Part shown: one piece after another, positions 2,633-58,860 of the stretch
Layout of the letters: each line of letters begins with the position of its first letter
Position numbering within the stretch: position 1 is the stretch's first letter
NCBI GenBank assembly: GCA_964016885.1
Contig: OZ024746.1
Span: forward strand, 69,440,001 to 69,504,000
Length of the DNA stretch: 64,000 nt
Direction: 5' to 3'
From: Eledone cirrhosa
Taxonomy: Eukaryota
Position numbers and translations under genes: made by a program
The notes under the pieces: model-generated
Told to the model about the DNA's origin: nothing
Databases searched by the model: none
Seen by the model: the letters and a program-made list of their open reading frames with translations, nothing else

Positions 2633-3612
2633 CTCTCTTCATCAGGGCCTGAGATGACATCACATTTATATACAATATCCTTTGTAAGGCATTTATTGCA
2701 GAAGGGACATGCAGCCTTATCGTGGCAGTTGCACAGGACCTCAGAACCGGGATTTCGGAGGTAGTAGACTTATTTAACTTAGTAATATTAATATTGGCTA
2801 AGTTCCTAGCTAGATTTGGTGTAGTGGAGTAAGAGAGTCTGATTGTATTCTTATTAAAGATGGTGTAGTACCTATGTTGGGTGGGGAAGTGTTTGTGCAA
2901 TAGAGTAAAGAAATGTTTTGCTATAGGTGTAGATACCTCGCAGTTGAATGGGGATTGTACCAGCTAATTTGCCTCTACCTATTCCTCCTGGGTGGGCGTG
3001 GGGCTATTCTGAGATAAGAGATCTTATCTTTAAAACCGCTACGGGCTAAGGCTTCGTTGTAATAGGGGGCCGCTGCCCTAAAGATATCCTCATTGGCGGA
3101 GAGGCCAGAGATCCTAAGGGAGACACTTTTAACTAAATTATCTGTGATGTTCTTGGGGTGATTCGAGTTAACGTCTATATATCTAAGAGATTCGTTAGGT
3201 TTGTGGTACGGATAATAAAGGGATGTTTCTAAATGGAGAGTTACATCTAAGAAGTTGGCTTTAGTTAAACTCGAATCTATAGTTATTCTGAGGCCTAGGT
3301 TATTGAAGAAAGCGTTAAGGTTTTTCCGTAACCCATCGGTAGTCCTGGGGTTAATTTTATGCAGGGCAAAGAGGCCGTCATTCCGGTATAATCCGCCTGT
3401 AAGGCCTGTGAAGAAGGTTTTCATCCGGTTAAGGATAAACAGGCCCACCAGATCACTAATCTCTGCCGAGTCACGAGCACCCATGCTGACATCGAAGGGA
3501 GTCTCCGATTTTTTGTTGATCCAGTAGGACGCGTTATGGTACAAAAAGGTCTTACGTGCATGGAGGATCACATCCTGCTCGGCGTCGGTTATGGTGGTTA
3601 GGTTTCTTGCGA
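2630..3612 (-). pseudogene. Penelope-like element, decayed RT C-terminal part and 3' end
   Basis: ORF 2975..3640: FDVSMGARDSAEISDLVG, GLYRNDGL (YRDD-like), NFLDVTL, YHKP..YIDVNSNHP are typical Penelope RT/thumb motifs; frameshifted continuation 2577..2900; both ends in (TA)n. Confidence 0.85.
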
Positions 3613-3639
3613 ATATATATATATATATATATATATACA

Positions 3640-5745
3640 AGTGGAAGCTTAGTAAAATCGAAGTTATATATATATATATAAGGAAAAAAGATAAAATTGA
3701 AAATGCAACTGGAGTCTTTTTTTTTTTTAAATATATTTATTTGGTTCCTTTACCGGTTTCACAGTTCTTGTGCTTTTCAAAAGTAGAATTGAGATGGAGG
3801 ATTTGTGGTTTTTCTCGCATCTGGTTGATGTTCGAATGTTACTTCTGTTTAATATGGAAAAAAGTGGCTCGAAATGCTAGGTTTTTAGAAAAGTAATTTG
3901 GTTGGTTGATGACTGTCATGTGAATAAGTATAATAAATTTCGCGCCAGTTCGCGTTACAAAGTTCTTATTATATTTGCCTTTAAAAAACGTGTGTGTGTG
4001 TGGGGGGGAGGGGGGGGGGGCTCAGATTGTTTTTTCATATATGAGTGAAGTTTGGTTGGTTGATGCAGTCACGTGAATCAGCTTTCGCGCCAGTCTGTGT
4101 TTGAATTTCTTTTTACTTAAAAAAGCTCACGAAGGCTTTTTTTTTATAAATGTAATTTGATTGGTTATAAATGAAATTATCACTGTTACGTGAACAAGTA
4201 CATTAAATTCCGCGCCGTATTTTGGAATTTTTTTGTAGCCATTTAGAGAATTTTGTGCCAAACAAAAGATAATGGTCAAGAAAAAGGGGATGGAAAGAAT
4301 TGTTCTGGTTCAGTGAGTATGGCTGATGTGGTGAAATGTAATTTGATTGGTTATAAATGAAATTATGACTGTCACGTGAACAAGTACATTAAATTTCGCG
4401 CCCGTATTTAGGAATTTCTTTTGTAGCCATTTAGAGAATTTTGTGCCAAACAAAAGATAATGGTCAAGAAAAACGGGATGGGGAGAATTGTTCCGGTTCA
4501 GTGAGTATGGCTGATGTGCTGGGGTGTCAAAATTCAGACTTTCTATTGAAATAAAGAAAGTAGAGATATGTATGTTTATTTGTGTTCTGGTGTGTGTGTG
4601 TGTGGGTGGGGGGGGTGTATGTGTGTGTGTGTGTGTGTGTGTAGGAAGATGATTCTATTAGTAGAAATGGGGGAGGGAGTTGTGTGTGTGTGTGTATGGA
4701 TGTTATATGTGTGTGTGTGTGTGGGGGGGGGGTATGGTTAGCATGTTAAGATGGAGAGAATATATATTTTTGTGTGTGTGAGTGTAGGAAAATGATTCTG
4801 TTAGTAGAAATGTGGAAAGGAGTTATGTGTGTGTGGGGGGTATTGTTATCATATTAAGGTGTTAGAGTATTAACGTATGTTAAGGTGTATTTAGCTCTGG
4901 TTTTTATTTTCGAATATAGAAGGTGTTATGTGTGTATGTATGTGTCTGTTTGGGTGGTTAGCATGTTATGGTGTTGACATAATGTATATTAAACTATATT
5001 TAATGCTGGTCTATATTTTTGAATAAACATATTTTCCTTATTTATTCGTATTTGTTCTGCTGCATTGTCAGCGCAAAGATAAAATGGGAAGACTTGGAAT
5101 TTGGGTGTCTTATTACTTGCGCATATGTCTAGATGTGCACTGAGTGGTATCTGTCTTGTGGTAGGGTCTCGTAATTGTTGGCGATGAATTGTCATTCTGT
5201 TTCTGTGTGAGTTTAGTTTGTCCTATATAATCTTCATTGCATCCTTTACATTTAATGGCATAAAGCAAATTTTTTGATGAGCAAGTGAAGTGATTTTTTA
5301 CAGCAAAATTTTGTCCTGATTGAAATGTATACATGTTGCCTTCAATGAGGTGAGTGCAGGTTCCACAATTAGAACGACCACATTTTTTGACAGTTTGTTG
5401 TGGGTTTGTGGTAGGTAATTTGGCATTGGTGTGTAATGTTTTTAGTGATTTCGGTTGTCTTTTGCTTTTGATTATTTTGTGTGTTTCAAGGGCTTTTTTC
5501 ATTCTTGGGTCTTGTTTCAATAGTGGGATGTTCTTGTGAATAATCTTGTAAGCTTCCGCATTTCTCGGGTTGTGTGTTGAGATATATAATAGAATATTGG
5601 ACGTACCTTGAATTTGTTTCTGTTTTCGTAATTCATCAATGCCTATTGCTTTAGCCCTTTCTATTCCGTTATTTATTAGTAATGGTGGGTACTGTCTTTC
5701 GAGCAGAATTTCCTTTAATTCTTGAAGTCTTTTATTTCGCGTTTC
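3640..5745 (-). mobile_element. Penelope-like element (Neptune-type) 3' part: Cys linker, GIY-YIG endonuclease and long 3' UTR/pLTR
   Basis: ORF 5113..5520 KCGRSNCGTCTH...NLLYAIKCKGCNEDYIGQT; frameshifted 4989..5195 with R..H..E.MFIQKYRPALN; downstream AC-rich UTR with tandem duplications (4140-4330 ~ 4335-4520). Confidence 0.85.
3745..3788 (-). ncRNA. Minimal hammerhead motif, U3-A8 variant, in the PLE 3' end
   Basis: Minus strand CUU UUGAAAA GCACAAGAACUGU GAAA CCGG UA AAG; palindromic stem III ACCGGU, only 3-bp stem I, AAUAAA just downstream. Confidence 0.5.
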
Positions 5746-5764
5746 ATATATATATATCTATCTA

Positions 5765-6859: not shown

Positions 6860-7196
6860 TTATTAAAATAACAGATTAAAGTTTAAGCAAAGAATCGCTG
6901 CTTTCACCCTTAACGGGATCTTCTGAAACTAACAAAGTCAATCTGTAAACGCAGAAGTGGATATTTCAAAAAACGTTGCAACCGGAGGAAGACAGGAAGA
7001 CGATACTTTGGTTCGTGGAAACGTTCGCTGGCAAAGAACGGGAAAATACGAATATAATACGTCATTAATAGGAGCGGTGAAAAACAATTACGCGCAAAGA
7101 CAGAACCACGTTTATGGTATAAAAGAGGTCGTAGACTAATGTTCTCTTAGGTGGTTCATAGAGACGTTCTCTGGCAATGAACGAAAAAAAAACGAA
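6860..7196 (-). mobile_element. Non-coding hammerhead-bearing repeat (copy A)
   Basis: Near-identical to 49917-50248 and 8245-8470; no meaningful ORF; abuts (TA)n. Confidence 0.8.
6871..6946 (-). ncRNA. Extended type I hammerhead ribozyme, U4A core variant (copy A)
   Basis: ACAGAUUGA-CUUUGUU-AGUUU CAGAAGA U-CCC-GUUAA-GGG-U GAAA GCAG-CGAUUCU-UUGC UU AAACU-UUAAUCUGU: stems I (5+9 bp with 7-nt bulge), II and III all pair. Confidence 0.7.
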
Positions 7197-7684
7197 TGAG
7201 CATGAGCCAGAGTCGGTGATAGAAAACGATCAGGCGAAGGTGTTATGGGATTTTAGTATACAGACGGATAAGAAACTAGAACACAATAGGCCTGACCTGG
7301 TTGTTTTGGACAAGGAAAAAAAGATCGTGCCTGATTGTAGATGTAGCCTGCCCATTCGCCACGAGAGTGCAAGAAAAGGAGAGGGAGAAAATTAACCGAT
7401 ACCAGGACTTAAAGTGGGAGGTAAAAAGGATTTGGAACTGCCATGAAGTCAGAGTCGTCCCGATTGTCATAGGCGCACTAGGTACTATCTCAAAGAGTTT
7501 CCAAGGATGATTAAAGAAAGTTAGTCCAGCCCCGCTTTTTGGAACACTTCAAAAGGCATGCTTGCTGGGAACAGCAAGAACCCTCCGATACCTCCTGAAT
7601 ATCTGAGACTGCAGGTAGCGGCTTGATATTCATTTCAACAAACTTTCCAGTTAAATAACATCAATGACTGAGACTCAAAAGAAC

Positions 7685-7720
<36 letters not shown>
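7197..7720 (+). pseudogene. R4/Dong-clade LINE 3' fragment (restriction-like endonuclease) with (AAT)n tail
   Basis: VLWDFSIQTDKKLEHNRPDLVV..CLIVDVACP..EKINRYQDLKWE..VVPIVIGALG; tail aacaataataat. Confidence 0.85.
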
Positions 7721-7724
<4 letters not shown>

Positions 7725-7916
7725 GTAAAAATAAATGTGAAGACTAAAATCCAAGGAGGGCTCGAAAAGGATAAATATATATCAAATATATAAGAACCCT
7801 AGAGCAAATATTTATTAAAGTTTAAGTTTGCTTAAACTTTAATCTGTTATTTTAATATATATAAGTAAGTATGTTTTGAAACAGTGAGCAGGTTTGAAAT
7901 TAGAAAATAGAATAGC

Positions 7917-8096
7917 TTTCATCGTATTTTTTACTAAAGAAATTTTAGCCTGATAATGGGGTTTAGAACCCTCAGATAAATGGGAAAAGATGAGTATTGA
8001 CGTACATGTACGTCGCTACATATCTTTTTCCATTTATCTGAAGGTTCTAAACCCCATTACCAGGCTAAATTTTCTTTAGTCAAAAATACGGTGAAA
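7917..8096. repeat. Fold-back hairpin with ~75-bp arms and central 16-bp palindrome
   Basis: 7917-7991 inverted at 8021-8096; gacgtacatgtacgtc at 7999-8014; abuts long (TA)n. Confidence 0.75.
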
Positions 8097-8241
<145 letters not shown>

Positions 8242-8244
8242 TTA

Positions 8245-8590
8245 TTTATTAAAATAACAGATTAAAGTTTAAGCAAAGAATCGCTGCTTTCACCTTTAAC
8301 GGGATCTTCTGCAACTAACAAAGTCAATCTGTGAACGCAGAAGTGAATATTTAAAAAAACGTTGCAACCGGAGGAAGACAGGAAGACGATACTTTGGTTC
8401 GTGGAAACGTTCCCTGGCAAAGAACGGTAAAAAACGAATATAATACGTCATTATTTGGAGCGGTGAAAAATAACCACGTAAATGGTAGAACTGAAGTCGT
8501 AGATTACGACTTCAGTTATACCATTTACGTGGTTTCGTCTTTGCGTGCAATTGTTCTACCCGCTCCACATACTACGACTTCAGTTAGTCA
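8245..8590 (-). mobile_element. Hammerhead-bearing repeat copy B with internal fold-back
   Basis: Hammerhead 8257-8332 (CAGAAGA kept, one mismatch each in stems I and II); 30-bp-arm hairpin 8472-8534, then inverted family sequence to ~8590. Confidence 0.75.
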
Positions 8591-9092
8591 CATCTAATAT
8601 AGCGTTGTAACTTGTTTATAATTCAGCGAGGGAAGTAACTCTTGTAAGAATTTATTAAAAATTATCTTTTTGTTGATTTCCCTTTGGTCATACATTCAAA
8701 TGTTTTCTTTTTACAATTTTCAATCATCGGACTGTGGTTATGCTTGAGCACCACCCTGTATGGTATTGGGCGTAACGAAATTTGAACTTAGTACGGACCT
8801 AACTAAATCCTGCGTGTGTGAATGTGTGCGCGCACGTGTGTGCATCTGTGTGCGCCCGCGCGTTCTTTTATTATTGTATTCTATCAGTCATTGGACTATA
8901 GCCATGCTGGGGCACCTACCTAGGTTTTAGTTCATATTTATTACACATAGAAGCACCTATTTTAGCCTGGTACTTATTTTATTAGCAAAGGTTTATGTTA
9001 CTTTTTAACATAAAGGGACACAATTCGACACACCAGGTTACACCAATATAGACAAACAACACACACGACTTTCCTTCGCACATACACCTCTA

Positions 9093-10725: not shown

Positions 10726-10747
10726 TCTATATATCTAAAACAGAGAA

Positions 10748-10840
<93 letters not shown>

Positions 10841-11197
10841 GACTGACTCCCTAAAACTCGAGAACCACCCAACCGATTTTTTTCAAACTTTGAACAAAAA
10901 GAATTTCAAATTTTCAATGCCATAGGGACCACATTAGGCGCCGAACGTCGCGTCCTTATAATATTTGGTTGTGTATCTGGCTGTCTGCATTACGACATTA
11001 TGACGTTATCTGTGTGTGTGTATATATATGTGTATATATATAGTGTGTGTGTGTGTGTATATATATATATGTATATATATATTCATATAATTGTTCTGCA
11101 TCCCCTTGCATAGAACCACAAAGTTACTAAGACATAACATATATATTTGCTAGCATAGGTATACATCTGTATACATATGTTGGTAGATAAACTAATT

Positions 11198-11261
<64 letters not shown>

Positions 11262-11379
11262 TGTAACGTTTTTTTTTTCGAAATATTTACTTCTGTGTTC
11301 ACAGATTGAATTTTTTTAGTTTCAGAAGATCCCGTTAAGGGTGAAGGCAGCGGTTCTTTGCTTAAACTTTAATCTGTTA

Positions 11380-11427
<48 letters not shown>

Positions 11428-11874
11428 TATATTTGTGTACAGATATTTTTGCATACACAAAAACAAAATATAAACAGCAGCAAAAACAACAAAAAAGAGA
11501 GGGAACGCAATTACATGCTTTTGAAAAATCGTAATGCAAAATGATTTGCCTATTCACCCAAGGCGACTTCACTTTTCATTAGCTGTAACTATTGCTTTCA
11601 TTGTACCATAGCACAACAAATACATGTTCGGTTTCTCGAATGCCTTTTTACTTAACCCTATCCTCTTGGCTTTCGTGGGTTGAACATTTTACTCTCAGGC
11701 ACCCAATTAAGTTAAACCCCTGGTAATCTAAGACGAATTTTTGTTATAAGCACAACATGTAGACACCTTTCCCAGGCCGAGGTATTCCGTACTTCTCTGT
11801 ACTGTTTCAGAAAGGAGGGATAAACATACTAATCTATGTTTAGAATCCCGAGCAAGGCCGGGCCATTCTGCTAG
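10726..11874 (+). mobile_element. Non-autonomous Helitron carrying (TCTG)n and a hammerhead fragment
   Basis: A|TCTATATATC 5' end, subterminal hairpin cccgagcaaggccggg, CTAG|T 3' end; second copy on minus strand 44361-46610. Confidence 0.85.
11301..11376 (+). ncRNA. U4A hammerhead copy C inside the Helitron (A15.1 changed to G)
   Basis: acagattga..agttt CAGAAGA tcccgttaagggt GAAG gcagcggttctttgc TT aaact ttaatctgt. Confidence 0.55.
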
Positions 11875-29278: not shown

Positions 29279-29354
<76 letters not shown>

Positions 29355-29558
29355 ATAATAATAAATTTGAAGACTAAAATCCATATATATATATATATAA
29401 AATACATATATATACATACACACACATATATATATATATATATATTGGTGTGCCCGGCCGACTGAACTCACTCGATATGCAAATTAGGCTGCTCAGCCGT
29501 TAATATGCATAAGGAAAGTATATACTTTCAGACGTTCAACCATCAGGCAGGAAGGTAT

Positions 29559-31591: not shown

Positions 31592-34104
31592 TCTCTATAT
31601 ATAAATCTGAGGATGTGTGTGTTAAGGTTTGTAACGTATGCACGTCCACAATTTCCAACGGATTTTATTCAAAGTCGGGACAATTATTGATTTTGGTCCG
31701 GAGAAGGTCATGAGGTAAAAGAATTTCAAATCCATCAACAATAAGGACAAAAATCGATTATGATCATTCCCCCTCTCTATAATTTAACTGCTTTACTCTC
31801 TCTGTCGCTCTTCACTCCCTATATGACAACACTGCAGAGAGAGAAACAGTGTGTATGATCAAATGGAGCGTTCCGTATATTCCCTCCCTCTATAATTTAA
31901 CTGCTTTACTCTCTCTGTCGCTCTTCATTCCCTATATGACAACACTGCAGTGGAGCGTACGTATTGAGCGTTCCATGTTGAGCGTTCCGTATTGACATAC
32001 GGCTTATCTGGGGCATTTTCAATCGGCTTATTGCAAATAACAACCCGTAAAATAACACTTCATATAACAGATTAATGCTATAGATATATGAATCGGAATG
32101 TAACCCGTGAACTTTTTCCTGGGCAAAATTATTCGAACAGACATGACCTCATTGCCAGAGTGTTCAGACTGAAACTGGCTAAACTCATGGCTTTAATCAA
32201 AGAGGGTCAGGTATTTGGGGCTGTAAAATGTGACATGTCGAATGGCAAAACCGAGGGCTGCCAAATGCTCACATTTTGATTTGGTTAGCTGATAAAATCA
32301 ATTCAAATGCCATAGACAGCTTCATTTCGGCTGAAATCCCTAACCCAGCAACTGACCAGAAATTACATGACATCGTCAAAGCTAACATGGTCCGTGTGCG
32401 TCGGGTCCTAATGAGCATCACACGTGTCTGAAAGGGGGATCGTGCAGTAAGGGATACCCAAAAAGATTTGTTGACCAGACTCAGACTGGTGGCGACGGGT
32501 ACCCCCTGTACAGGCGGAGACAGCCCGAGAACGGTGGCTTCACCACAACAGTAAAGGGGGGTCAAGTCGCCTTCTTCTGCATGAAGTTGTAGGCCCACAA
32601 AGTTTTCAGGACCTCAAAACTGTTGATGGAGAAATATGTGATACGTACCGGGAAGCCTGCTTTAAGCGTGGTCTTTTGGAAGATGATTCGCAATGGGATT
32701 CCACTTTAGCAGATGGTGCTTTGCTGAAATCACCTAAAGGTCTACGGGAACTCTTTGCCATTTTGCTTCAAAAGTGTGAATATGGGTCAAGTACAGAGAC
32801 TTCATGTCTGAGGACTTCCTGCGCCTGGCTCATCTGCAGAATCCTTCAGTGGAAGTTGGTTACAGCGACATTATCTACAACAGGGCAGTCATTGATATCG
32901 AGGACACCCTCCTCGACATGGGGAGGAGTGAGTTGGCGACATATGGCTTGCTGTCAACCATCAGAGAGGAAGCTAACACGTTGGCCCCGGATTTGTTGCG
33001 GGAAACAGCATATGACATCGAATCTCTTTCCCAATACTTAGAGGAAAATGAGCCCAAACTACTGTCGGACCAAAGGTTGGCCTATTTAACTATCATTGAC
33101 GCGGTTCAAAATCAGAGTGGGGGTATTTACTTTCTCGATGCTCCTGGGGGTACCGGAAAAACTTTTGTAACGAAATTGATTCTCGCTAAGATTCATCAGG
33201 AGAAAAAAATTGCGTTGGCCGTTGCATCGTCCGGGATCGCTGCTACTTTGCTGCCGGGAGGCAGGACAGCACACTTTGTACCTGAGCACAAATATGCGTG
33301 CTCATTTACATGGTGACAACATGTCTGCAGCAATTTGCTCAGAACATTTTAGCACTTCGTGAGGGCAAGGTCTCTGCGGATGACAAGGGCGGCAGAGCAA
33401 TCGACTCCCTGTGCAACATTGTGAGCAACCCTTCTGACCTTTGGGAAGCAGTTTTTTCTAATGTCTCATCTAACTTTAAAAAGCTCGATTGGCTCAGCGA
33501 AAGAGCCATCCTTGCTCCGAAAAATACCATGGTTAATTTTATTAAAGAGCAGCTGATTGAGAAAATTCCCGGTAAAGAGCACATCTTCAAATCTATCGAC
33601 CGGACATCAAACCCCGACGATATCGTTAATTATCCGGTTGAGTTATTAAATTCCCTTGAGCCCCCAGGGCTCTCACCTTACATTCTTAAGCTTAGGGTTG
33701 GCTGTCCCATTATGCTAATAAGGAACATGCATCCAACAAAGCAGTGCAACGGTACTCGCATGGTCGTCAAGTCACTGACTCCCCACTTGATTGAGGCCAC
33801 CATTGTAACGGGATGCGGGAGAGGGGAGAATATTTTCATTCCAAGGATCAACCTTTTCTCCTCGGCGTCAGATATCCCGTTCGATTTTCGGCGATCCCAA
33901 TTCCCGGTGAGACCATGTTTTGCCATGTCCATTAACAAGTCATAAGGGCAAACATTGTCGGTGGCGGGCATCCATTTGGCGGAGCCATGCTTCTCCCATG
34001 GCCAACTTTATGTTGTCTGTTCCCGCGTAGGGAGCAGGAATGGACTTTTTGCTTACACTCCTCAAGGGATGACACGCAATATCGTCTACAAAGAGGTGCT
34101 ATAG
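31592..34104 (+). mobile_element. Decayed autonomous-type Helitron (Rep plus PIF1 helicase), internally deleted
   Basis: A|TCTCTATATATAAA 5' end; Rep motifs RHDLIARVF and EWQ.RGLP.AHIL; helicase DAPGGTGKTF, VASSGIAATLLPGGRTAH, ERAILAPKN, CNGTRM, QFPVRPCFAMSINKS, TRNIVYKEVL*; no 3' hairpin/CTAG seen. Confidence 0.9.
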
Positions 34105-44360: not shown

Positions 44361-46610
44361 CTAGCAGAATGGCCCGGCGTTGCTCGGGATTCTAAACATA
44401 GATTGGCATGTTTATCCCTCCTTTCTGAAACAGTACAGTACCTCGGCCTGGGGATGATGTCTACATTTTGTGCTTATAAAAAAAATTCGTCGTAGATTAC
44501 CAGGGGTTTAACTTAATTGGGTGCCTGAGAGTACAATGAAAGCAATAGTTACAGAGCAGTAAGCATGTGGGACTGCAGTGGTGGAGAGTGGTGTTGTTTT
44601 ACTCCTTTCAATGTTTCGTCGTATGTTCACCAATTGAAGCAGAAGTCCTAATGAAAAGTGAAGTCGCCTTGGGTGAATAGGCAAATAATTTTCCATTACG
44701 ATTTTTCAAAAGCATGTAATTGCGTTCCCTCTCTTTTTTTGTTGTTGTTTTTGCTGCTGTTTATATTTTGTTTTTGTGTATACAAAAATATCTATACACG
44801 AATATATAATTATATACATATATATATATTAAAATAACAGATTAAAGTTTAAGCGATGAATCGCTGCTTTCACCCTTAACGGGATCTTCTGAAACTAAAA
44901 AAATCAATCTGTGAACGCAGAGGTAAATATTTCGAAAAACGTTACACACTATATATACACACACACTATACACCCCCACCCTCCCCCCCACACACACAGA
45001 GATAGCGTCATAATGTCGTAATGCAGACAGATATATTTCTTTATTAGCCACAAGGGCGCACAAGAAAAGGGGACAATACAAAGACATGCCGGGGATTTTA
45101 CATACAGTTGTGTAAAAAATATAAAAACAAACAATTACAACAATCGAAATCCCCAATAGGGGGGGGGCACACATGGGTTGTTTAATACCCCGTCGATAGA
45201 ACAACCCTCAACTCCAGGAGCGTGTTGTGCAAGTGCTCCTTTCTTCCTTTTGCTCTCTTCTTCAACGTACAGGCTTATAAACAGAGAAGGCCCAATCACT
45301 CGGGCCATTTTCGCTTCATTCACCCACCTTTCAGTAAATTTACTGGGGTGCAGTGCCTCTCTCTCCACCCTAATTCTCCTTCTAAAGTGATACTTAAAGA
45401 AGGGAATCAATTGTTGTCCGGAGAGAAAGGCATCTGTTCTCAGTCCTCTCAACCTCGTCCACCATATAACTTCTTTCACCATAGCCACTGTACAGAGGAA
45501 AACCGCCTCTCTATCGTTTTTGAAAGAGGCTGGCGATTTGATCCTTACTATGGACTCGGCAGTCAACTGGATTTGTCCCATACGCGACAGCAGTTGTTCT
45601 GCATAGTTCCACAGGTCGGTTAAGCCCGAGCAGTGTACAATTGCGTGCAGGACTGTTTCAATATCCTGCGCGCATCTTGGACACGTCCTCTTGGAAGGAT
45701 CCCTGCCGGGGTGTCCGTGCCTGTAGATCTTGTCACGAACCGGTAGAGCTTCTCGGTAGCACTGCCAGGCCAGGGACCTCTGGAAGTTGTCTATAGGTCC
45801 CGGGCGGAAAGTCCTACCAAACAGACTGGTGAGCTCATCGTCTTCGACGCCCAGAGTCTCTCCGAGCACGTCGTCGCCCTTGTAACGTACAATCCCTCTA
45901 TAAAATGTCGAAGTGGAGTCTCCACTGATTGCTGCGCCCGCTTGCCAGAGGACTGTGAGCGCCTGAGCGCATTCAATGTGCCAGGCGCCCATCATTTTCG
46001 GTCTTTTCATGACCCAGGACTGCAGCTCCGTCAGCGAGACGAGCTGTGGGAAAGCCTGTCTCACAAACGGTGCCCACACCGGTTGGGGGTCGGTGAGGAA
46101 TACCTGGAGATGCCGCAGCCTCAGCGCATGTTTGCGCATTATCAGCCACGGCATTCCCAGCCCTCCGCTGGAAGGGTGCTGACAGCAGACGGATCTCCTC
46201 ACCAGCGGAGCCTGCTTCTTCCACAGAAACTGGAAGAGCATGCGTTCCATCTTGCGGAGGACAAGGCACGACAGTCAAGCGGTAGTAGATGACGGACGCT
46301 ATGAATGTGTTCGCCACCTTCGCTCGACCTTTCAAGGACAGTTTGCACTTCTGGGTGAGTGCAAACACCTTGGCCGTGACCTCGTTCCAGTTTTTCTCCA
46401 CCTGGAGGCCTGGACTGAACCAAACCCCGAGCAATTTCACCGGTCCGTCCGTCCAGCGTCCAACTACGCTGTCGGACGTCATCGGCTTGCCTGTCCACGT
46501 ACCGAGTTGCAAACCGACAGACTTGTCCGGATTTATTTTTGCTCCCGTCAGCGTTTCGTATTCTTTCAGTAATGCAGACAGACAGACATTCTCTGTTTTA
46601 GATATATAGA
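44361..46610 (-). mobile_element. Non-autonomous Helitron, second copy, interrupted by a Tx1-like LINE
   Basis: Reverse complement of the 10726-11874 family with TC..CTAG ends at an AT target; contains hammerhead copy D at 44837-44912. Confidence 0.85.
45032..46568 (-). pseudogene. Tx1/L1-clade LINE 3' fragment (diverged subfamily) with 14-bp target-site duplication
   Basis: ORFs 45973..46632 and 45135..46250 (CPRC..ETVLHAIVHC) homologous to 24585-25712; gtaatgcagacaga at 45018-45031 and 46569-46582. Confidence 0.9.
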
Positions 46611-49746: not shown

Positions 49747-49796
49747 GCTATTTGGTCTCATTCTTGGTCAACTTATGAACTTTTCAGCCGACCTTC

Positions 49797-49828
<32 letters not shown>

Positions 49829-49832
<4 letters not shown>

Positions 49833-50575
49833 ATAATAATAAAATTGAAGACTAAAATCCAGAGAGGGCTCGATAAGGAAAATATATATCAAATATATAA
49901 GAACCGAAGAGCAAATATTTATTAAAATAACAGATTAAAGTTTAAGCAAAGAATCGCTGCTTTCACCCTTAACGGGATCTTCTGAAACTAACAAAGTCAA
50001 TCTGTAAACGCAGAACTGGATATTTCAAAAAACGTTGCAACCGGAGGAAGACAGGAAGACGATACTTTGGTTCATGGTGACGTTCGCTGGCAAAGAACGG
50101 GAAAAAACGAATAATACGTCATTAATAGGAGCGGTGAAAAACAATTACGTGCAAGGACAGAACCACGTTTATGGTATAAAAGAGGTCGTAGACTAAAGTT
50201 CTCTAAGTGGTGCATAGAGACGTTCTCTGGCAATGAACGAAAAAACGAAGATAATAAGTCATATGTGGAGCGTGGAGAACAATAGCGTGCAAAGACAAGA
50301 CCACGTAAATGGTATAGCAGAAGTCGTAGACTAAAATTCTAACTAGGAGACCGAATGAATCTCCGCTACAGAGTTAAGAACAAAGTAAATAAATACAATA
50401 CAGAAGTAATAGGAACAAATAAATACATACACGCAAACAGATACGTACATACACAAGCATACGCAAAACCTTACCATAGGTATACAAAACCACGCACATA
50501 TAAATATGTGTATGTGTGTTGCTTGTGTACAAATAAATAAATAATTATATAAACGTATATAAGTAAATAAATACG
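49829..50575 (-). mobile_element. Longest copy (E) of the non-coding hammerhead-bearing repeat
   Basis: Includes the segment seen separately at 7722-7815 and 29351-29382, the hammerhead at 49930-50005 and an internal ~70-bp tandem duplication. Confidence 0.8.
49930..50005 (-). ncRNA. Extended type I hammerhead, U4A core variant (copy E)
   Basis: Identical to copy A over the 76-nt motif. Confidence 0.7.
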
Positions 50576-50760: not shown

Positions 50761-51360
50761 CTATATATATATATATATACGAAGGTCGGCTGAAAAGTTC
50801 ATAAGTTGACCAAGAATGAGCCATCATGTGTGTATGTATGTGTGTGTGTAAAAGTCTAGTGACAAAACGGCAAGTTTTTTAAAAGATATTCTTAAGAATC
50901 ATATACTTGTTACAAACACTGTGCAAGAGAATTCCTGCATTGCAACACATTAACACATTGAATTAGGTATATTATATACAGCAGACTATAACTTAGGGTG
51001 TGGTGTATACTCGAGAATATTTACTGAAATATATACAATTTATAAACTGATTTCCTTCTTTCTGTGCAGTTGCCAACCATAATAACACATTTGTTAATGT
51101 TATAGCGTTAAATTATGAAAGATTATACATAACATTTTGGCAACGATAGCTTTGTATACAGCTGATAAATATTTACCATGATTAAACTAGATGTACAGTC
51201 ATGATTGCGATTTATGTTACTGTTTAGTGAACGAGAGAAGGATGGTATATATTCCTATTTTAAGAGCCACAGAAATAGCTAGGAAGAAGAGAGTGAAGAA
51301 AGTATCCCCAAATTAGGGATTTTTTCTAAATGCTTGCAACAGAGTAACTCTACTAAAGTT

Positions 51361-54300
51361 ACCCAAAGTCCACATGGTCGTGTTAAACCAGGTGACAGAT
51401 AAGTCAACTACCCAAGGTCCACATGGTGCTGTTAAACCAGGTGATAGATTAAGTCAACTACCCAAGGTTCACATGGTGCTGTTAAACCAGGTGATAGATT
51501 AAGTCAACTACCCAAGGTCCACATGGTTGTATTAAACCAGGTGATAGATTAAGTCAACTACCCAAAGTCCACATGGTGCTGTTAAACCAGGTGATAGATT
51601 AAGTCAACTACCCAAAGTCCACATGGTGCTGTTAAACCAGGTGATAGATTAAGTCAACTACCCAAGGTTCACATGGGGCTGTTAAACCAGGTGATAGATT
51701 AAGTCAACTACCCAAAGTCCACATGGTGCTGTTAAACCAGGTGATAGATTAAGTCAACTACCCAAGGTCCACATGGTGCTGTTAAACCAGGTGATAGATT
51801 AAGTCAACTACCCAAGGTCCACATGGTGCTGTTAAACCAGGTGATAGATTAAGTCAACTACCCAAGGTTCACATGGTGCTGTTAAACCAGGTGATAGATT
51901 AAGTCAACTACCCAAGGTCCACATGGTGCTGTTAAACCAGGTGATAGATTAAGTCAACTACCCAAGGTCCACATGGTCGTATTAAACCAGGTGATAGATT
52001 AAGTCAACTACCCAAGGTCCACATGGTCGTATTAAACCAGGTGATAGATTAAGTCAACTACCCAAGGTCCACATGGTACTGTTAAACCAGGTGATAGATT
52101 AAGTCAACTACCCAAGGTCCACATGGTGCTGTTAAACCAGGTGATAGATTAAGTCAACTACCCAAGGTTCACATGGTGCTGTTAAACCAGGTGATAGATT
52201 AAGTCAACTACCCAAGGTCACATGGTGCTGTTAAACCAGGTGATAGATTAAGTCAACTACCCAAGGTCCACATGGTGCTGTTAAACCAGGTGATAGATTA
52301 AGTCAACTACCCAAGGTCCACATGGTGCTGTTAAACCAGGTGATAGATTAAGTCAACTACCCAAGGTCCACATGGTGCTGTTAAACCAGGTGATAGATTA
52401 AGTCAACTACCCAAGGTCCACATTGTCGTATTAAACCAGGTGATAGATTAAGTCAACTACCCAAGGTCCACATGGTGCTGTTAAACCAGGTGATAGATTA
52501 AGTCAACTACCCAAGGTCCACATTGTCGTATTAAACCAGGTGATAGATTAAGTCAACTACCCAAGGTTCACATGGTGCTGTTAAACCAGGTGATAGATTA
52601 AGTCAACTACCCAAGGTCCACATGGTCGTATTAAACCAGGTGATAGATTAAGTCAACTACCCAAATCCACATGGTGCTGTTAAACCAGGTGATAGATTAA
52701 GTCAACTACCCAAGGTTCACATGGTGCTGTTAAACCAGGTGATAGATTAAGTCAACTACCCAAGGTTCACATGGTGCTGTTAAACCAGGTGATAGATTAA
52801 GTCAACTACCCAAGGTCCACATGGTGCTGTTAAACCAGGTGATAGATTAAGTCAACTACCCAAGGTCCACATGGTGCTGTTAAACCAGGTGATAGATTAA
52901 GTCAACTACCCAAGGTCCACATGGTGCTGTTAAACCAGGTGATAGATTAAGTCAACTACCCAAGGTCCACATGGTCGTATTAAACCAGGTGATAGATTAA
53001 GTCAACTACCCAAGGTCCACATGGTGCTGTTAAACCAGGTGATAGATTAAGTCAACTACCCAAGGTCCACATGGTCGTATTAAACCAGGTGATAGATTAA
53101 GTCAACTACCCAAGGTCCACATGGTCGTATTAAACCAGGTGATAGATTAAGTCAACTACCCAAGGTCCACATGGTACTGTTAAACCAGGTGATAGATTAA
53201 GTCAACTACCCAAGGTCCACATGGTGCTGTTAAACCAGGTGATAGATTAAGTCAACTACCCAAGGTCCACATGGTACTGTTAAACCAGGTGATAGATTAA
53301 GTCAACTACCCAAGGTCCACATGGTACTGTTAAACCAGGTGATAGATTAAGTCAACTACCCAAGGTCCACATGGTTGTATTAAACCAGGTGATAGATTAA
53401 GTCAACTACCCAAGGTCCACATGGTTGTATTGAACCAGGTGACAGATAAGTCAACTACCCAAGGTCCACATGGTGCTGTTAAACCAGGTGATAGATTAAG
53501 TCAACTACCCAAGGTCCACATGGTTGTATTAAACCAGGTGATAGATTAAGTCAACTACCCAAGGTCCACATGGTTGTATTAAACCAGGTGATAGATTAAG
53601 TCAACTACCCAAGGTCCACATGGTTGTATTAAACCAGGTGACAGATAAGTCAACTACCCAAGGTCCACATGGTGCTGTTAAACCAGGTGATAGATTAAGT
53701 CAACTACCCAAGGTCCACATGGAGCTGTTAAACCAGGTGATAGATTAAGTCAACTATCCAAGGTCCACATGGTCGTATTAAACCAGGTGATAGATTAAGT
53801 CAACTACCCAAGTATCACATGGTGCTGTTAAACCAGGTGATAGATTAAGTCAACTACCCAAGATTCACATGGGGCTGTTAAACCAGGTGATAGATTAAGT
53901 CAACTACCCAAGGTCCGCATGGTCGTATTAAACCAGGTGATAGATTAAGTCAACTATCCAAGGTCCACATGGTGCTGTTAAACCAGGTGATAGATTAAGT
54001 CAACTACCCAAGGTTCACATGGTGCTGTTAAACCAGGTGATAGATTAAGTCAACTACCCAAGGTCCACATGGTGCTGTTAAACCAGGTGATAGATTAAGT
54101 CAACTACCCAAGGTCCACATGGTCGTATTAAACCAGGTGATAGATTAAGTCAACTACCCAAGGTCCACATGGTGCTGTTAAACCAGGTGATAGATTAAGT
54201 CAACTACCCAAGGTCCACATGGTGCTGTTAAACCAGGTGATAGATTAAGTCAACTACCCAAGGTCCACATTGTCGTATTAAACCAGGTGATAGATTAAGT

Positions 54301-57300
54301 CAACTACCCAAGGTTCACATGGTGCTGTTAAACCAGGTGATAGATTAAGTCAACTACCCAAGGTCCACATGGTGCTGTTAAACCAGGTGATAGATTAAGT
54401 CAACTACCCAAGGTTCACATGGTGCTGTTAAACCAGGTGATAGATTAAGTCAACTACCCAAGGTTCACATGGTGCTGTTAAACCAGGTGATAGATTAAGT
54501 CAACTACCCAAGGTCCACATGGTGCTGTTAAACCAGGTGATAGATTAAGTCAACTACCCAAGGTCCACATGGTGCTGTTAAACCAGGTGATAGATTAAGT
54601 CAACTACCCAAGGTCCACATTGTCGTATTAAACCAGGTGATAGATTAAGTCAACTACCCAAGGTTCACATGGTGCTGTTAAACCAGGTGATAGATTAAGT
54701 CAACTACCCAAGATTCACATGGGGCTGTTAAACCAGGTGATAGATTAAGTCAACTACCCAAGGTCCGCATGGTCGTATTAAACCAGGTGATAGATTAAGT
54801 CAACTATCCAAGGTCCACATGGTGCTGTTAAACCAGGTGATAGATTAAGTCAACTACCCAAGGTTCACATGGTGCTGTTAAACCAGGTGATAGATTAAGT
54901 CAACTACCCAAGGTCCACATGGTGCTGTTAAACCAGGTGATAGATTAAGTCAACTACCCAAGGTCCACATGGTCGTATTAAACCAGGTGATAGATTAAGT
55001 CAACTACCCAAGGTCCACATGGTGCTGTTAAACCAGGTGATAGATTAAGTCAACTACCCAAGGTCCACATGGTCGTATTAAACCAGGTGATAGATTAAGT
55101 CAACTACCCAAGGTCCACATGGTCGTATTAAACCAGGTGATAGATTAAGTCAACTACCCAAGGTCCACATGGTACTGTTAAACCAGGTGATAGATTAAGT
55201 CAACTACCCAAGGTCCACATGGTGCTGTTAAACCAGGTGATAGATTAAGTCAACTACCCAAGGTTCACATGGTGCTGTTAAACCAGGTGATAGATTAAGT
55301 CAACTACCCAAGGTTCACATGGTGCTGTTAAACCAGGTGATAGATTAAGTCAACTATCCAAGGTCCACATGGTCGTATTAAACCAGGTGATAGATTAAGT
55401 CAACTACCCAAGGTCCACATGGTGATGTTAAACCAGGTGATAGATTAAGTCAACTACCCAAGGTCCACATGGTGCTGTTAAACCAGGTGATAGATTAAGT
55501 CAACTACCCAAGGTTCACATGGTGCTGTTAAACCAGGTGATAGATTAAGTCAACTACCCAAGGTCCACATGGTGCTGTTAAACCAGGTGATAGATTAAGT
55601 CAACTACCCAAGGTCCACATGGTGCTGTTAAACCAGGTGATAGATTAAGTCAACTACCCAAGGTTCACATGGTGCTGTTAAACCAGGTGATAGATTAAGT
55701 CAACTACCCAAAGTCCACATGGTCGTATTAAACCAGGTGATAGATTAAGTCAACTAACCAAGGGCTACATGGTGCTGTTAAACCAGGTGATAGATTAAGT
55801 CAACTACCCAAGGTCCCACATGGTCGTATTAAACCAGGTGATAGATTAAGTCAACTACCCAAGGTCCACATGGTGCTGTTAAACCAGGTGATAGATTAAG
55901 TCAACTACCCAAGGTTCACATGGTGCTGTTAAACCAGGTGATAGATTAAGTCAACTACCCAAGGTCCACATGGTCGTATTAAACCAGGTGATAGATTAAG
56001 TCAACTACCCAAGGTTCACACGGGCTGTTAAACCAGGTGATAGATTAAGTCAACTACCCAAGTTCACATGGTGCTGTTAAACCAGGTGATAGATTAAGTC
56101 AACTACCCAAGGTTCACATGGGGCTGTTAAACCAGGTGATAGATTAAGTCAACTACCCAAGGTCCACATGGTCGTATTAAACCAGGTGATAGATTAAGTC
56201 AACTACCCAAGGTTCACATGGTGCTGTTAAACCAGGTGATAGATTAAGTCAAACTATCCAAGGTCCACATGGTCGTATTAAACCAGGTGATAGATTAAGT
56301 CAACTACCCAAGGTCCACATGGTGCTGTTAAACCAGGTGATAGATTAAGTCAACTACCCAAGGTCCACATGGTCGTATTAAACCAGGTGATAGATTAAGT
56401 CAACTACCCAAGGTCCACATTGTCGTATTAAACCAGGTGATAGATTAAGTCAACTACCCAAATCCACATGGTGCTGTTAAACCAGGTGATAGATTAAGTC
56501 AACTACCCAAGGTCCACATGGTCGTATTAAACCAGGTGATAGATTAAGTCAACTACCCAAGGTCCACATGGTCGTGTTAATCCAGGTGATAGATTAAGTC
56601 AACTACCCAAGGTCCACATGGTGCTGTTAAACCAGGTGATAGATTAAGTCAACTACCCAAGGTTCACATGGTCGTATTAAACCAGGTGATAGATTAAGTC
56701 AACTACCCAAGGTCCACATGGTGCTGTTAAACCAGGTGATAGATTAAGTCAACTACCCAAAGTCCACATGGTCGTATTAAACCAGGTGATAGATTAAGTC
56801 AACTACCCAAGGTCCACATGGTGCTGTTAAACCAGGTGATAGATTAAGTCAACTACCCAAGGTCCACATGGTGCTGTTAAACCAGGTGATAGATAAAGTC
56901 AACTACCCAAGGTCCACATGGTGCTGTTAAACCAGGTGATAGATTAAGTCAACTACCCAAGGGTCCACATGGTCGTATTAAACCAGGTGATAGATTAAGT
57001 CAACTACCCAAGGTCCACATGGTGCTGTTAAACCAGGTGATAGATTAAGTCAACTACCCAAGGTCCACATGGTCGTGTTAAACCAGGTGATAGATTAAGT
57101 CAATTACCCAAGGTCCACATGGTGCTGTTAAACCAGGTGATAGATTAAGTCAACTACCCAAGGTCCACATGGTCGTATTAAACCAGGTGATAGATTAAGT
57201 CAACTACCCAAGGTCCACATGGTGCTGTTAAACCAGGTGATAGATTAAGTCAACTACCCAAGGTCCACATGGTGCTGTTAAACCAGGTGATAGATTAAGT

Positions 57301-58298
57301 CAACTACCCAAGGTCCACATGGTCGTATTAAACCAGGTGATAGATTAAGTCAACTACCCAAGGTCCACATGGTCGTGTTAAACCAGGTGATAGATTAAGT
57401 CAACTACCCAAGGTTCACTTGGGGCTGTTAAACCAGGTGATAGATTAAGTCAACTACCCAAGGTCCACATGGTCGTATTAAACCAGGTGATAGATTAAGT
57501 CAACTACCCAAGGTTCACATGGTGCTGTTAAACCAGGTGATAGATTAAGTCAACTACCCAAGGTCCACATGGTGCTGTTAAACCAGGTGATAGATTAAGT
57601 CAACTACCCAAGGTCCACATGGTCGTATTAAACCAGGTGATAGATTAAGTCAACTACCCAAGGTCCACATGGTGCTGTTAAACCAGGTGATAGATTAAGT
57701 CAACTACCCAAGGTCCACATGGTCGTATTAAACCAGGTGATAGATTAAGTCAACTACCCAAGGTTCACATGGGGCTGTTAAACCAGGTGATAGATTAAGT
57801 CAACTACCCAAGGTTCACATGGGGCTGTTAAACCAGGTGATAGATTAAGTCAACTACCCAAGGTTCACATGGGGCTGTTAAACCAGGTGATAGATTAAGT
57901 CAACTACCCAAGGTTCACATGGGGCTGTTAAACCAGGTGATAGATTAAGTCAACTACCCAAGGTCCACATGGTGCTGTTAAACCAGGTGATAGATTAAGT
58001 CAACTACCCAAGGTTCACATGGGGCTGTTAAACCAGGTGATAGATTAAGTCAACTACCCAAGGTTCACATGGGGCTGTTAAACCAGGTGATAGATTAAGT
58101 CAACTACCCAAGGTTCACATGGTGCTGTTAAACCAGGTGATAGATTAAGTCAACTACCCAAGGTTCACATGGGGCTGTTAAACCAGGTGATAGATTAAGT
58201 CAACTACCCAAGGTTCACATGGGGCTGTTAAACCAGGTGATAGATTAAGTCAACTACCCAAGGTCCACATGGTCGTGTTAAACCAAGTGACAGATTAA
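51361..58298. repeat. 50-bp tandem satellite, about 139 units
   Basis: Consensus aagtcaactacccaaggtccacatggtgctgttaaaccaggtgatagatt; length/50 gives ~139; no unique spacers, no ORF. Confidence 0.97.
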
Positions 58299-58354
58299 TT
58301 CTGCTACTCGCAACGGATGTTGGAATCTGAAAGCGAAAAGGGAAGCAGTGGATA

Positions 58355-58734: not shown

Positions 58735-58856
58735 AGTTTTAATATAGATGAGATTCTACTGGACTAGAACTGTTTCATTCTTTAGAAATCATCAGATTCC
58801 TGATGATTTCTAAAGAATGAAACAGTTCTAGTCCTGTAGAATCTCATCTATATTAA

Positions 58857-58860
<4 letters not shown>
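58735..58860. repeat. Near-perfect 61-bp-arm hairpin with a hammerhead-like core in each arm
   Basis: One mismatch, 4-nt loop attc (58796-58799); right arm begins CTGATGA-tttctaaagaat-GAAA-cagttcta-GTC. Confidence 0.85.

Follow-up and report, generated by a model that had tools for sequence, protein, structure and literature searches.

Helitrons are recognised by a 5'-TC, a CTRR end, a hairpin and insertion between A and T without target duplication (Guo 2014, PMC4038834; this and the other literature is cited from parts of the papers). In bats, retroposed sequences and pieces of retrotransposons were inserted into Helibat Helitrons and were then amplified (Thomas 2014, PMC4224331). Type I hammerheads sit in the terminal repeats of Penelope-like elements (PLEs; Cervera and de la Pena 2014, PMC4209133). 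PLEs have inverted 5'-truncated partners and a bias toward microsatellites (Craig 2021, PMC8557442), and tails of 30-40 bp and AT-rich or microsatellite targets are described for them along with the inverted truncated partners (Craig 2021, PMC8557442; Frangieh 2024, PMC11167929).

The window analysed here is a 64-kb stretch of AT-rich, microsatellite-rich animal DNA with many LINE, SINE and Penelope-like fragments. Two copies of a Helitron in this window, C and D, share an internal slice of another repeat, and the slice contains a hammerhead-like motif. Compared by description, C and D are like Lep1-type Helitrons (PMC4038834) in their 5'-TC, CTRR end, insertion between A and T without duplication and acquired internal sequence, and unlike them in being longer and modular. 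As with bat Helibat (PMC4224331), transposition multiplies a sequence that had come to lie in a Helitron copy, and the cargo includes retrotransposon pieces; unlike in Helibat, the cargo of C and D is a 114-bp hammerhead-shaped fragment rather than an mRNA or a promoter, and no function is indicated. The motif resembles the hammerheads of PLEs and retrozymes (PMC4209133, PMC7229834, as far as the cited parts describe them) in being of type I, dispersed mostly as single copies, AT-rich and accompanied by inverted partial partners, whereas its A at position 4, its U.U at 10.1/11.1 and its 5-bp stem III, which is not minimal and palindromic, set it apart. A search by title and abstract opening, with subscription journals and supplements outside its scope, found no report of a Helitron-borne ribozyme or hammerhead-like cargo. 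In the part of one preprint that we cite (bioRxiv 10.64898/2026.07.22.740005), the single mention of Helitrons concerns host range.

With modest confidence, we favour the explanation that C and D share a 114-bp fragment of a very abundant, likely Penelope-derived repeat, which entered a microsatellite of their master Helitron before multiplication and is now probably an inactive passenger. C and D would then add a case to an already known process, in which a Helitron multiplies a piece of another repeat nested within it. The case also calls for caution, as a hammerhead-like match in a repeat-rich genome is not necessarily the sign of an active retroelement or an active ribozyme.

Two Helitron copies and their insertion sites

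A sequence-only reading of the window had placed two Helitron copies at 10726-11874 (+) and 44361-46610 (-), and their ends, A|T sites and unrelated flanks agree with this. Copy C (10726..11874, +) starts with TC at 10726, and its 3' terminator (11847..11874) consists of a hairpin (11847-11862) and a CTAG end (11871-11874). Copy D (44361..46610, -) belongs to the same subfamily; it has its 5'-TC at 46610 and the same hairpin in its 3' terminator (44361-44388), with CTAG at 44361-44364. In both copies a (TCTG)n run is close to the 5' end, a GC-rich, interrupted hairpin of 16 nt lies 8 nt 5' of CTAG, and the element is placed between A and T without target duplication. The (TCTG)n run, a tetranucleotide microsatellite, is presumably a further likeness to Lep1.

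The bodies of C and D are 95-97% identical, the blocks downstream of the slice matching at 156/161 and 164/173 positions. Two segments of C, of about 210 bp and about 200 bp, are missing from D, which contains a 5'-truncated LINE fragment of 1537 bp (45032..46568, -) with a 14-bp target duplication (45018-45031 and 46569-46582) and a zf-RVT match slightly below the cut-off. In public sequence data, the C-only segment and part of the D-only middle segment are found together in one contig of run X5 (second organism label), and the joint of the two segments is also present in 31 reads of run X13. C and D have therefore probably arisen from a longer master Helitron by separate deletions.

Lying 33 kb apart in one window, C and D might have been thought to be one segmental duplication with shared flanks, the outcome that the sequence-only reading had named as fatal to its own proposal. 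The similarity between C and D, however, ends where the element ends. Since global alignment of the flanks (179/259 and 177/261) is uninformative for AT-rich DNA, a shuffle test was used instead. The 500-bp flanks aligned no better than shuffled sequence, with 143/200 and 117/200 shuffles reaching the same score or better, while none of 200 shuffles was as good for the body block that served as control. The copies are also in opposite orientation, each with its own A|T site. A segmental duplication is thus ruled out by the unrelated flanks, and we give it a probability close to nil. C and D are genuine non-autonomous Helitrons and independent insertions of one subfamily.

The window also holds a decayed autonomous-type Helitron at about 31596-34100 (+) with matches to PIF1 (E 2.6e-21) and Pif1 2B (1e-12). 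Its 5' end is unlike that of C and D, and a search for its 3' end found none. A scan of metagenome contigs for the Helitron terminus pattern gave no matches. Elsewhere in the window, 51360-58307 is a 7-kb tandem array with a 50-bp period, and its units are about 95% identical.

The shared slice and the free repeat

The slice is 120 bp long in C (11265..11384, +; fold 11301-11377, core CAGAAGA at 11323) and 114 bp long in D (44830..44943, -; fold 44837-44912, core at 44891). The two slices agree at 108 of 114 aligned bases and share both the left and the right junction. They lie about 490 bp inside the Helitron, with one half of a TA/GT microsatellite on either side. The earlier description of a shared slice of about 130 bp was right on position and junctions; the size is 114-120 bp and comes to about 130 bp only when the TA tail is included. 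Since C and D have the same junctions, the slice was gained before the two insertions. The acquisition of the slice predates the multiplication of the C/D subfamily, and in this the proposed order of acquisition before amplification is upheld by shared junctions together with unrelated flanks. The slice-core pattern had no matches in metagenome, prokaryote-genome or viral contigs.

Three copies of the same repeat stand free in the window, and the slice matches them at 104-106 of 114 positions. Copy A (6864..7200, -) has its fold at 6871-6946 with no broken pairs. Copy B (7719..8600, -) has its fold at 8257-8332 with two broken pairs, as well as a fold-back (8472-8534), an inverted 37-bp piece (7827-7863) and a downstream 110-bp part (7719-7819). 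Copy E (49830..50340, -) has two 138-bp tandem units, a fold at 49930-50005 and the downstream 110-bp part, and contains no long ORF. The free repeat thus measures at least 510 bp and comprises two 138-bp units, the unique part in which the fold lies, and an end of 110 bp with TA runs next to it; TA runs adjoin all three copies, and the type I fold is near the 3' end. A lone 35-bp piece of this 3' end is found between TA runs at 29350-29383 (+), about the size of a Penelope 'tail'. Identical 59-bp inverted ends at 49757-49815 and 50762-50820 face outward and bracket copy E; we take them to resemble mariner.

The free repeat is likely Penelope-derived, judging from its inverted truncated partner (the fold-back and inverted piece of B), its microsatellite neighbours, its type I fold close to the 3' end, and the strand-switch joints and 5' truncations that reads show around the core. 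Unlike in PLE and retrozyme systems as described in the cited parts, no RT or GIY-YIG ORF linked to it was found within the window, no full-length parent in the 64 kb, and no DNA match between it and the RT-like fragments at 2975-5757. Pfam gave no useful match to the RT-like fragment 2978-3616 or the GIY-YIG-like fragment 5116-5739. The Atlas clusters of the former contain HTH_animal (26% of members) and RVT_1 (11%). We assume both fragments to be Penelope from their motifs. A non-LTR retrozyme was considered for the free repeat and rejected: such elements are made of tandem monomers (PMC7229834; bioRxiv 10.64898/2026.07.22.740005, both cited in part), and in the window the 138-bp tandem units are without the hammerhead-like motif and no tandem monomers each with a hammerhead were found.

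An uninterrupted look-alike of the TA/GT microsatellite flanking the slice is present in C at 11035..11077 (+) and is a putative empty site. The joined pattern without the slice (left flank, (GT)n, right flank) occurs once in 64 kb, at 11037 inside C, and the 14-mer of the left flank occurs in the window only in C (twice) and D. Having the look of an empty site, this pattern speaks for insertion into a microsatellite rather than for 3' read-through, with its weight limited by the low complexity of the DNA. Thus, the word 'captured', by which the Helitron itself was credited with taking up the slice, describes a less likely event than insertion into the microsatellite of the Helitron.

Nevertheless, the same neutral passenger might have been taken up by the Helitron machinery, through 3' read-through or a two-end composite, from a free copy lying between Helitron parts. 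Bypass of the 3' end has been demonstrated experimentally (Grabundzija 2016, PMC4778049, cited in part), and compared with B and E the slice is truncated on both sides. As its end is about 110 bp short of the end of these free copies, the slice is not clearly a 3'-anchored retro-copy. The Helitron family is also modular: in 750 X13 reads and 64 X1 contigs, its terminal 31 bp continue into a different piece of the free repeat. Against uptake, the slice is about 490 bp internal, between microsatellite halves whose uninterrupted form exists in C, and upstream of the slice a search for the hairpin of this Helitron family gave no additional terminator. We therefore consider uptake unlikely; nested insertion fits a slice within a microsatellite and a surviving empty form better than capture by end bypass.

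Under nested insertion, a fragment of the repeat would have been inserted at the GT/AT border of a compound microsatellite in the master Helitron, by the retroelement's own reverse transcriptase and endonuclease or as repair filler, and without target duplication. RepHel acting in trans would then have copied the Helitron together with the slice to new A|T sites, of which the two copies are the observed products; this step follows established Helitron biology (Grabundzija 2016, PMC4778049, cited in part). The two copies then decayed independently, as is seen in the deletions between short repeats, the LINE in D, A15.1G in C and the stem III changes in D. The damage that had been reported for the passenger copies is real: C has A15.1G, and D has two changes in stem III (44855 and 44857) that are rare in reads. 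Together, the two changes in D turn an imperfect palindrome into a perfect one of 6 bp, as a single template switch would.

Lesions are observed in the slice, and it probably decays neutrally as cargo. Neutral hitch-hiking, as had been proposed, agrees with the shared junctions, the unrelated flanks and the rare lesions private to the passengers. Damage is also present in free copy B (the two broken pairs), and five copies are too few to show a difference in decay.

The hammerhead-like motif

The motif has type I topology. Stem I consists of a 9-bp distal and a 5-bp proximal part around a 7-nt bulge, stem II of 3 bp, and stem III of 5 bp, with GAAA and a CUU cleavage triplet. In all five window copies the core strand is CAGAAGA instead of CUGANGA, with A at position 4, and positions 10.1/11.1 are U.U and not R10.1-Y11.1. 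The CUU triplet (NUH) is present in all five as well, and GAAA in four, C having GAAG. All pairs of the fold are possible in A, E and C, and pairs are broken in B and D. The hammerhead fold is never the minimum-energy fold in any of the five copies: its energy exceeds the minimum by 2.1 kcal/mol in A and E and by 4-8 kcal/mol in B, C and D.

Natural hammerhead cores with U10.1.U11.1 occur, and this is thus a tolerated variant, while the activity of a U4C viroid variant is much lower; no U4A is seen among the variants in the cited part of that study (Perreault 2011, PMC3088659). Every single mutant of the CUGA turn was poorly active (Roberts 2023, PMC9901934, cited in part), and a literature search found no published measurement of the activity of a U4A hammerhead. 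Since U4 is changed to A throughout the family, low self-cleavage is predicted even for the free copies. Our reading is that the motif derives from a hammerhead and is probably weak or dead across the whole family, the free copies included. The earlier statement that a DNA transposon is spreading a retroelement ribozyme is overstated: the CUGA turn is altered in all copies observed, the retroelement origin is a likely one only, and by read depth the C/D subfamily makes up a few percent of the copies of the repeat.

It is improbable, though worth weighing, that the motif is not hammerhead-derived at all, with the free repeat being another element (for example a Helentron-like one with 138-bp internal tandem units) and the fold a look-alike. 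The Rfam hammerhead models found nothing at the gathering cut-off in 64 kb, none of the 98 matches at E<=1 was a hammerhead, and neither was any of the three at E<=10 on copy E. The folding z-scores of the motif range from +0.10 to -1.63, the pairing probability of proximal stem I is 0.07 in A and E, where the fold is not the minimum as given above, and the core has three departures from the commonest hammerhead core. On the other side, a descriptor that tolerates a single core mismatch at most picked out A and E, but not B, C or D, along with one unrelated motif of the window whose core is intact, and it matched neither strand of any of 40 shuffles; it had been tuned after the motif had been seen. 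The natural occurrence of U10.1.U11.1 (Perreault 2011, PMC3088659, cited in part) also speaks against a mere look-alike. A hammerhead on the opposite strand was looked for and rejected, as there is no CUGANGA and no descriptor match there.

The intact-core motif is of type I and hammerhead-like, and lies at 58794-58845 (+) inside a fold-back (58735-58860) followed by a TA run. Its core is CUGAUGA/GAAA, with U.U at 10.1/11.1 and a GUA site, and its stems II and III are 3 bp and 4 bp long. Its build is the same as that of the U4A family (U.U, 3-bp stem II, long stem III) and its sequence is unrelated, which argues against a chance resemblance of the family to hammerheads; yet it scores only 20.9 bits in Rfam (at 58800) against a cut-off of 48.5, and thus Rfam is insensitive here. 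With this weighed, we continue with the motif as probably hammerhead-derived.

Hammerhead-like cores of minimal form, in which TATATA replaces stem III, are found at 2639 (-)/2584 (+), 34297 (+) and 59677 (+)/59496 (-). The first pair is in a fold-back right after the RT-like ORF fragments at 2975-3736, and the last pair is within a 1.5-kb inverted repeat.

Variants and joints in public reads

Reads and contigs of four runs (X1, X13, X5 and X6) out of 15 were aligned to the 3' part of D at 85% likeness, giving 7683 X1 contigs, 9157 X13 reads, 9 X5 contigs and 13 X6 contigs. The 15 listed runs included no RNA run with the sequence, which does not bear on its expression. The alignment left out 44728-44839 and 44941-45060, and with them both slice junctions. 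X1 and X13 carry one species label (organism A; 41% of words), which may not be the species of the window. Differences of at least 8% were taken from the best 40 of 46 rows, and loose ends and joints are those among the matches listed.

Among these best 40 of 46 rows, neither position 4 (44890) nor A15.1 (44868) has a difference of at least 8%, and A4 looks family-wide and the A15.1G of C rare. At 44855 and 44857, about 99% of X13 reads have another letter than D. Apart from these two letters of D, the common differences within the fold are all in the 7-nt bulge (among the matches listed). The free-copy letter is present in 564/2844 X13 reads and 44% of X1 word depth at 44899, in 624/2894 reads and 49% at 44903, and in 410/2577 reads and 11% at 44925. 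The C/D letters at these three positions thus make up 80%, 78% and 84% in X13. The U-rich bulge of C and D had been called private. Within the window this is so (2 of 5 copies), but in the reads the bulge is the majority allele, with about 80% in X13 and 51-56% in X1.

In X13, depth is 5302 at the core, 1399 at the Helitron terminus and 101-170 in the Helitron body adjoining the slice; the X1 word depths are 1.96 M, 105-154 k and 12-25 k. The slice thus exceeds the C/D-type Helitron body about 30-fold in X13, a RAD-seq run with uneven depth, and 80-165-fold in X1, where contig word depth is not copy number. The C/D Helitron subfamily makes up at most a few percent of the copies of the repeat, with the reservation that RAD-seq is biased and that word depth is no measure of copy number.

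The terminal reads that join the free repeat number about 750 of about 1230 in X13, along with the 64 X1 contigs. They leave the C/D body 31 bp short of the 3' end (window 44391) and run antisense into the 110-bp part 3' of the motif in free copies B and E. The commonest 3' end is thus the last 31 bp of the Helitron plus the antisense of the last 110 bp of the free repeat. Since these reads leave the C/D body so close to its end, most elements with the C/D terminus have another build. The joint also means that the Helitron family gained pieces of the free repeat at least twice. Beyond the terminus, flanks are mixed in 800 X13 reads and 80 X1 contigs.

The majority of C/D letters is also what would be expected if other subfamilies held many Helitron-borne copies. 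Helitrons might then be the main vehicle of the repeat, with the U-rich majority mostly in subfamilies with other bodies than those of C and D, and the free copies a minority. The letters of C and D are the majority at three linked positions, all three free copies in the window carry the minority letters, and most terminal reads show the terminus linked to a second piece of the repeat. The depths, however, do not fit well: U-rich X13 reads number about 2280 at 44899, more than the roughly 1400 on the terminus, and the excess is about 4-fold in X1. In addition, 549 and 231 X13 reads depart from the slice close to the core, and the flanks that they enter are mixed (agreement 0.51 and 0.70), the pattern expected of truncated free copies. 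We regard Helitrons as the main vehicle as doubtful, if slightly less so than a chance look-alike. If Helitrons did carry most copies, this would be a DNA-based spread of genomic hammerheads, with RNA cleavage sites planted in new transcripts.

More remote still is a combined account, in which a high-copy type I hammerhead (A4, U.U closing stem II, CUU) still cleaves alone, as a dimer or with a protein, and its U-rich majority resides mainly on a modular Helitron with two adjacent pieces of the repeat. If the U4A core were active, the hammerhead consensus would widen, and standard CUGANGA searches would miss a huge family. For the copies in C and D, we keep to the reading of a nested and probably inactive passenger.

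A loose-end consensus of nine X1 contigs has the middle pair of stem II changed from C-G to U-A, with both partners altered (agreement 0.72, median loose length 19). This paired change is a weak hint at past selection on the fold. An X6 contig with a different loop II was considered as support for covariation and rejected, as it breaks a stem II pair. Around the core, strand-switch joints are few, with 5-14 reads each among the matches listed, and 5' truncations are also present. Finally, a 66-bp tandem duplication across the core was found in 71 X13 reads.
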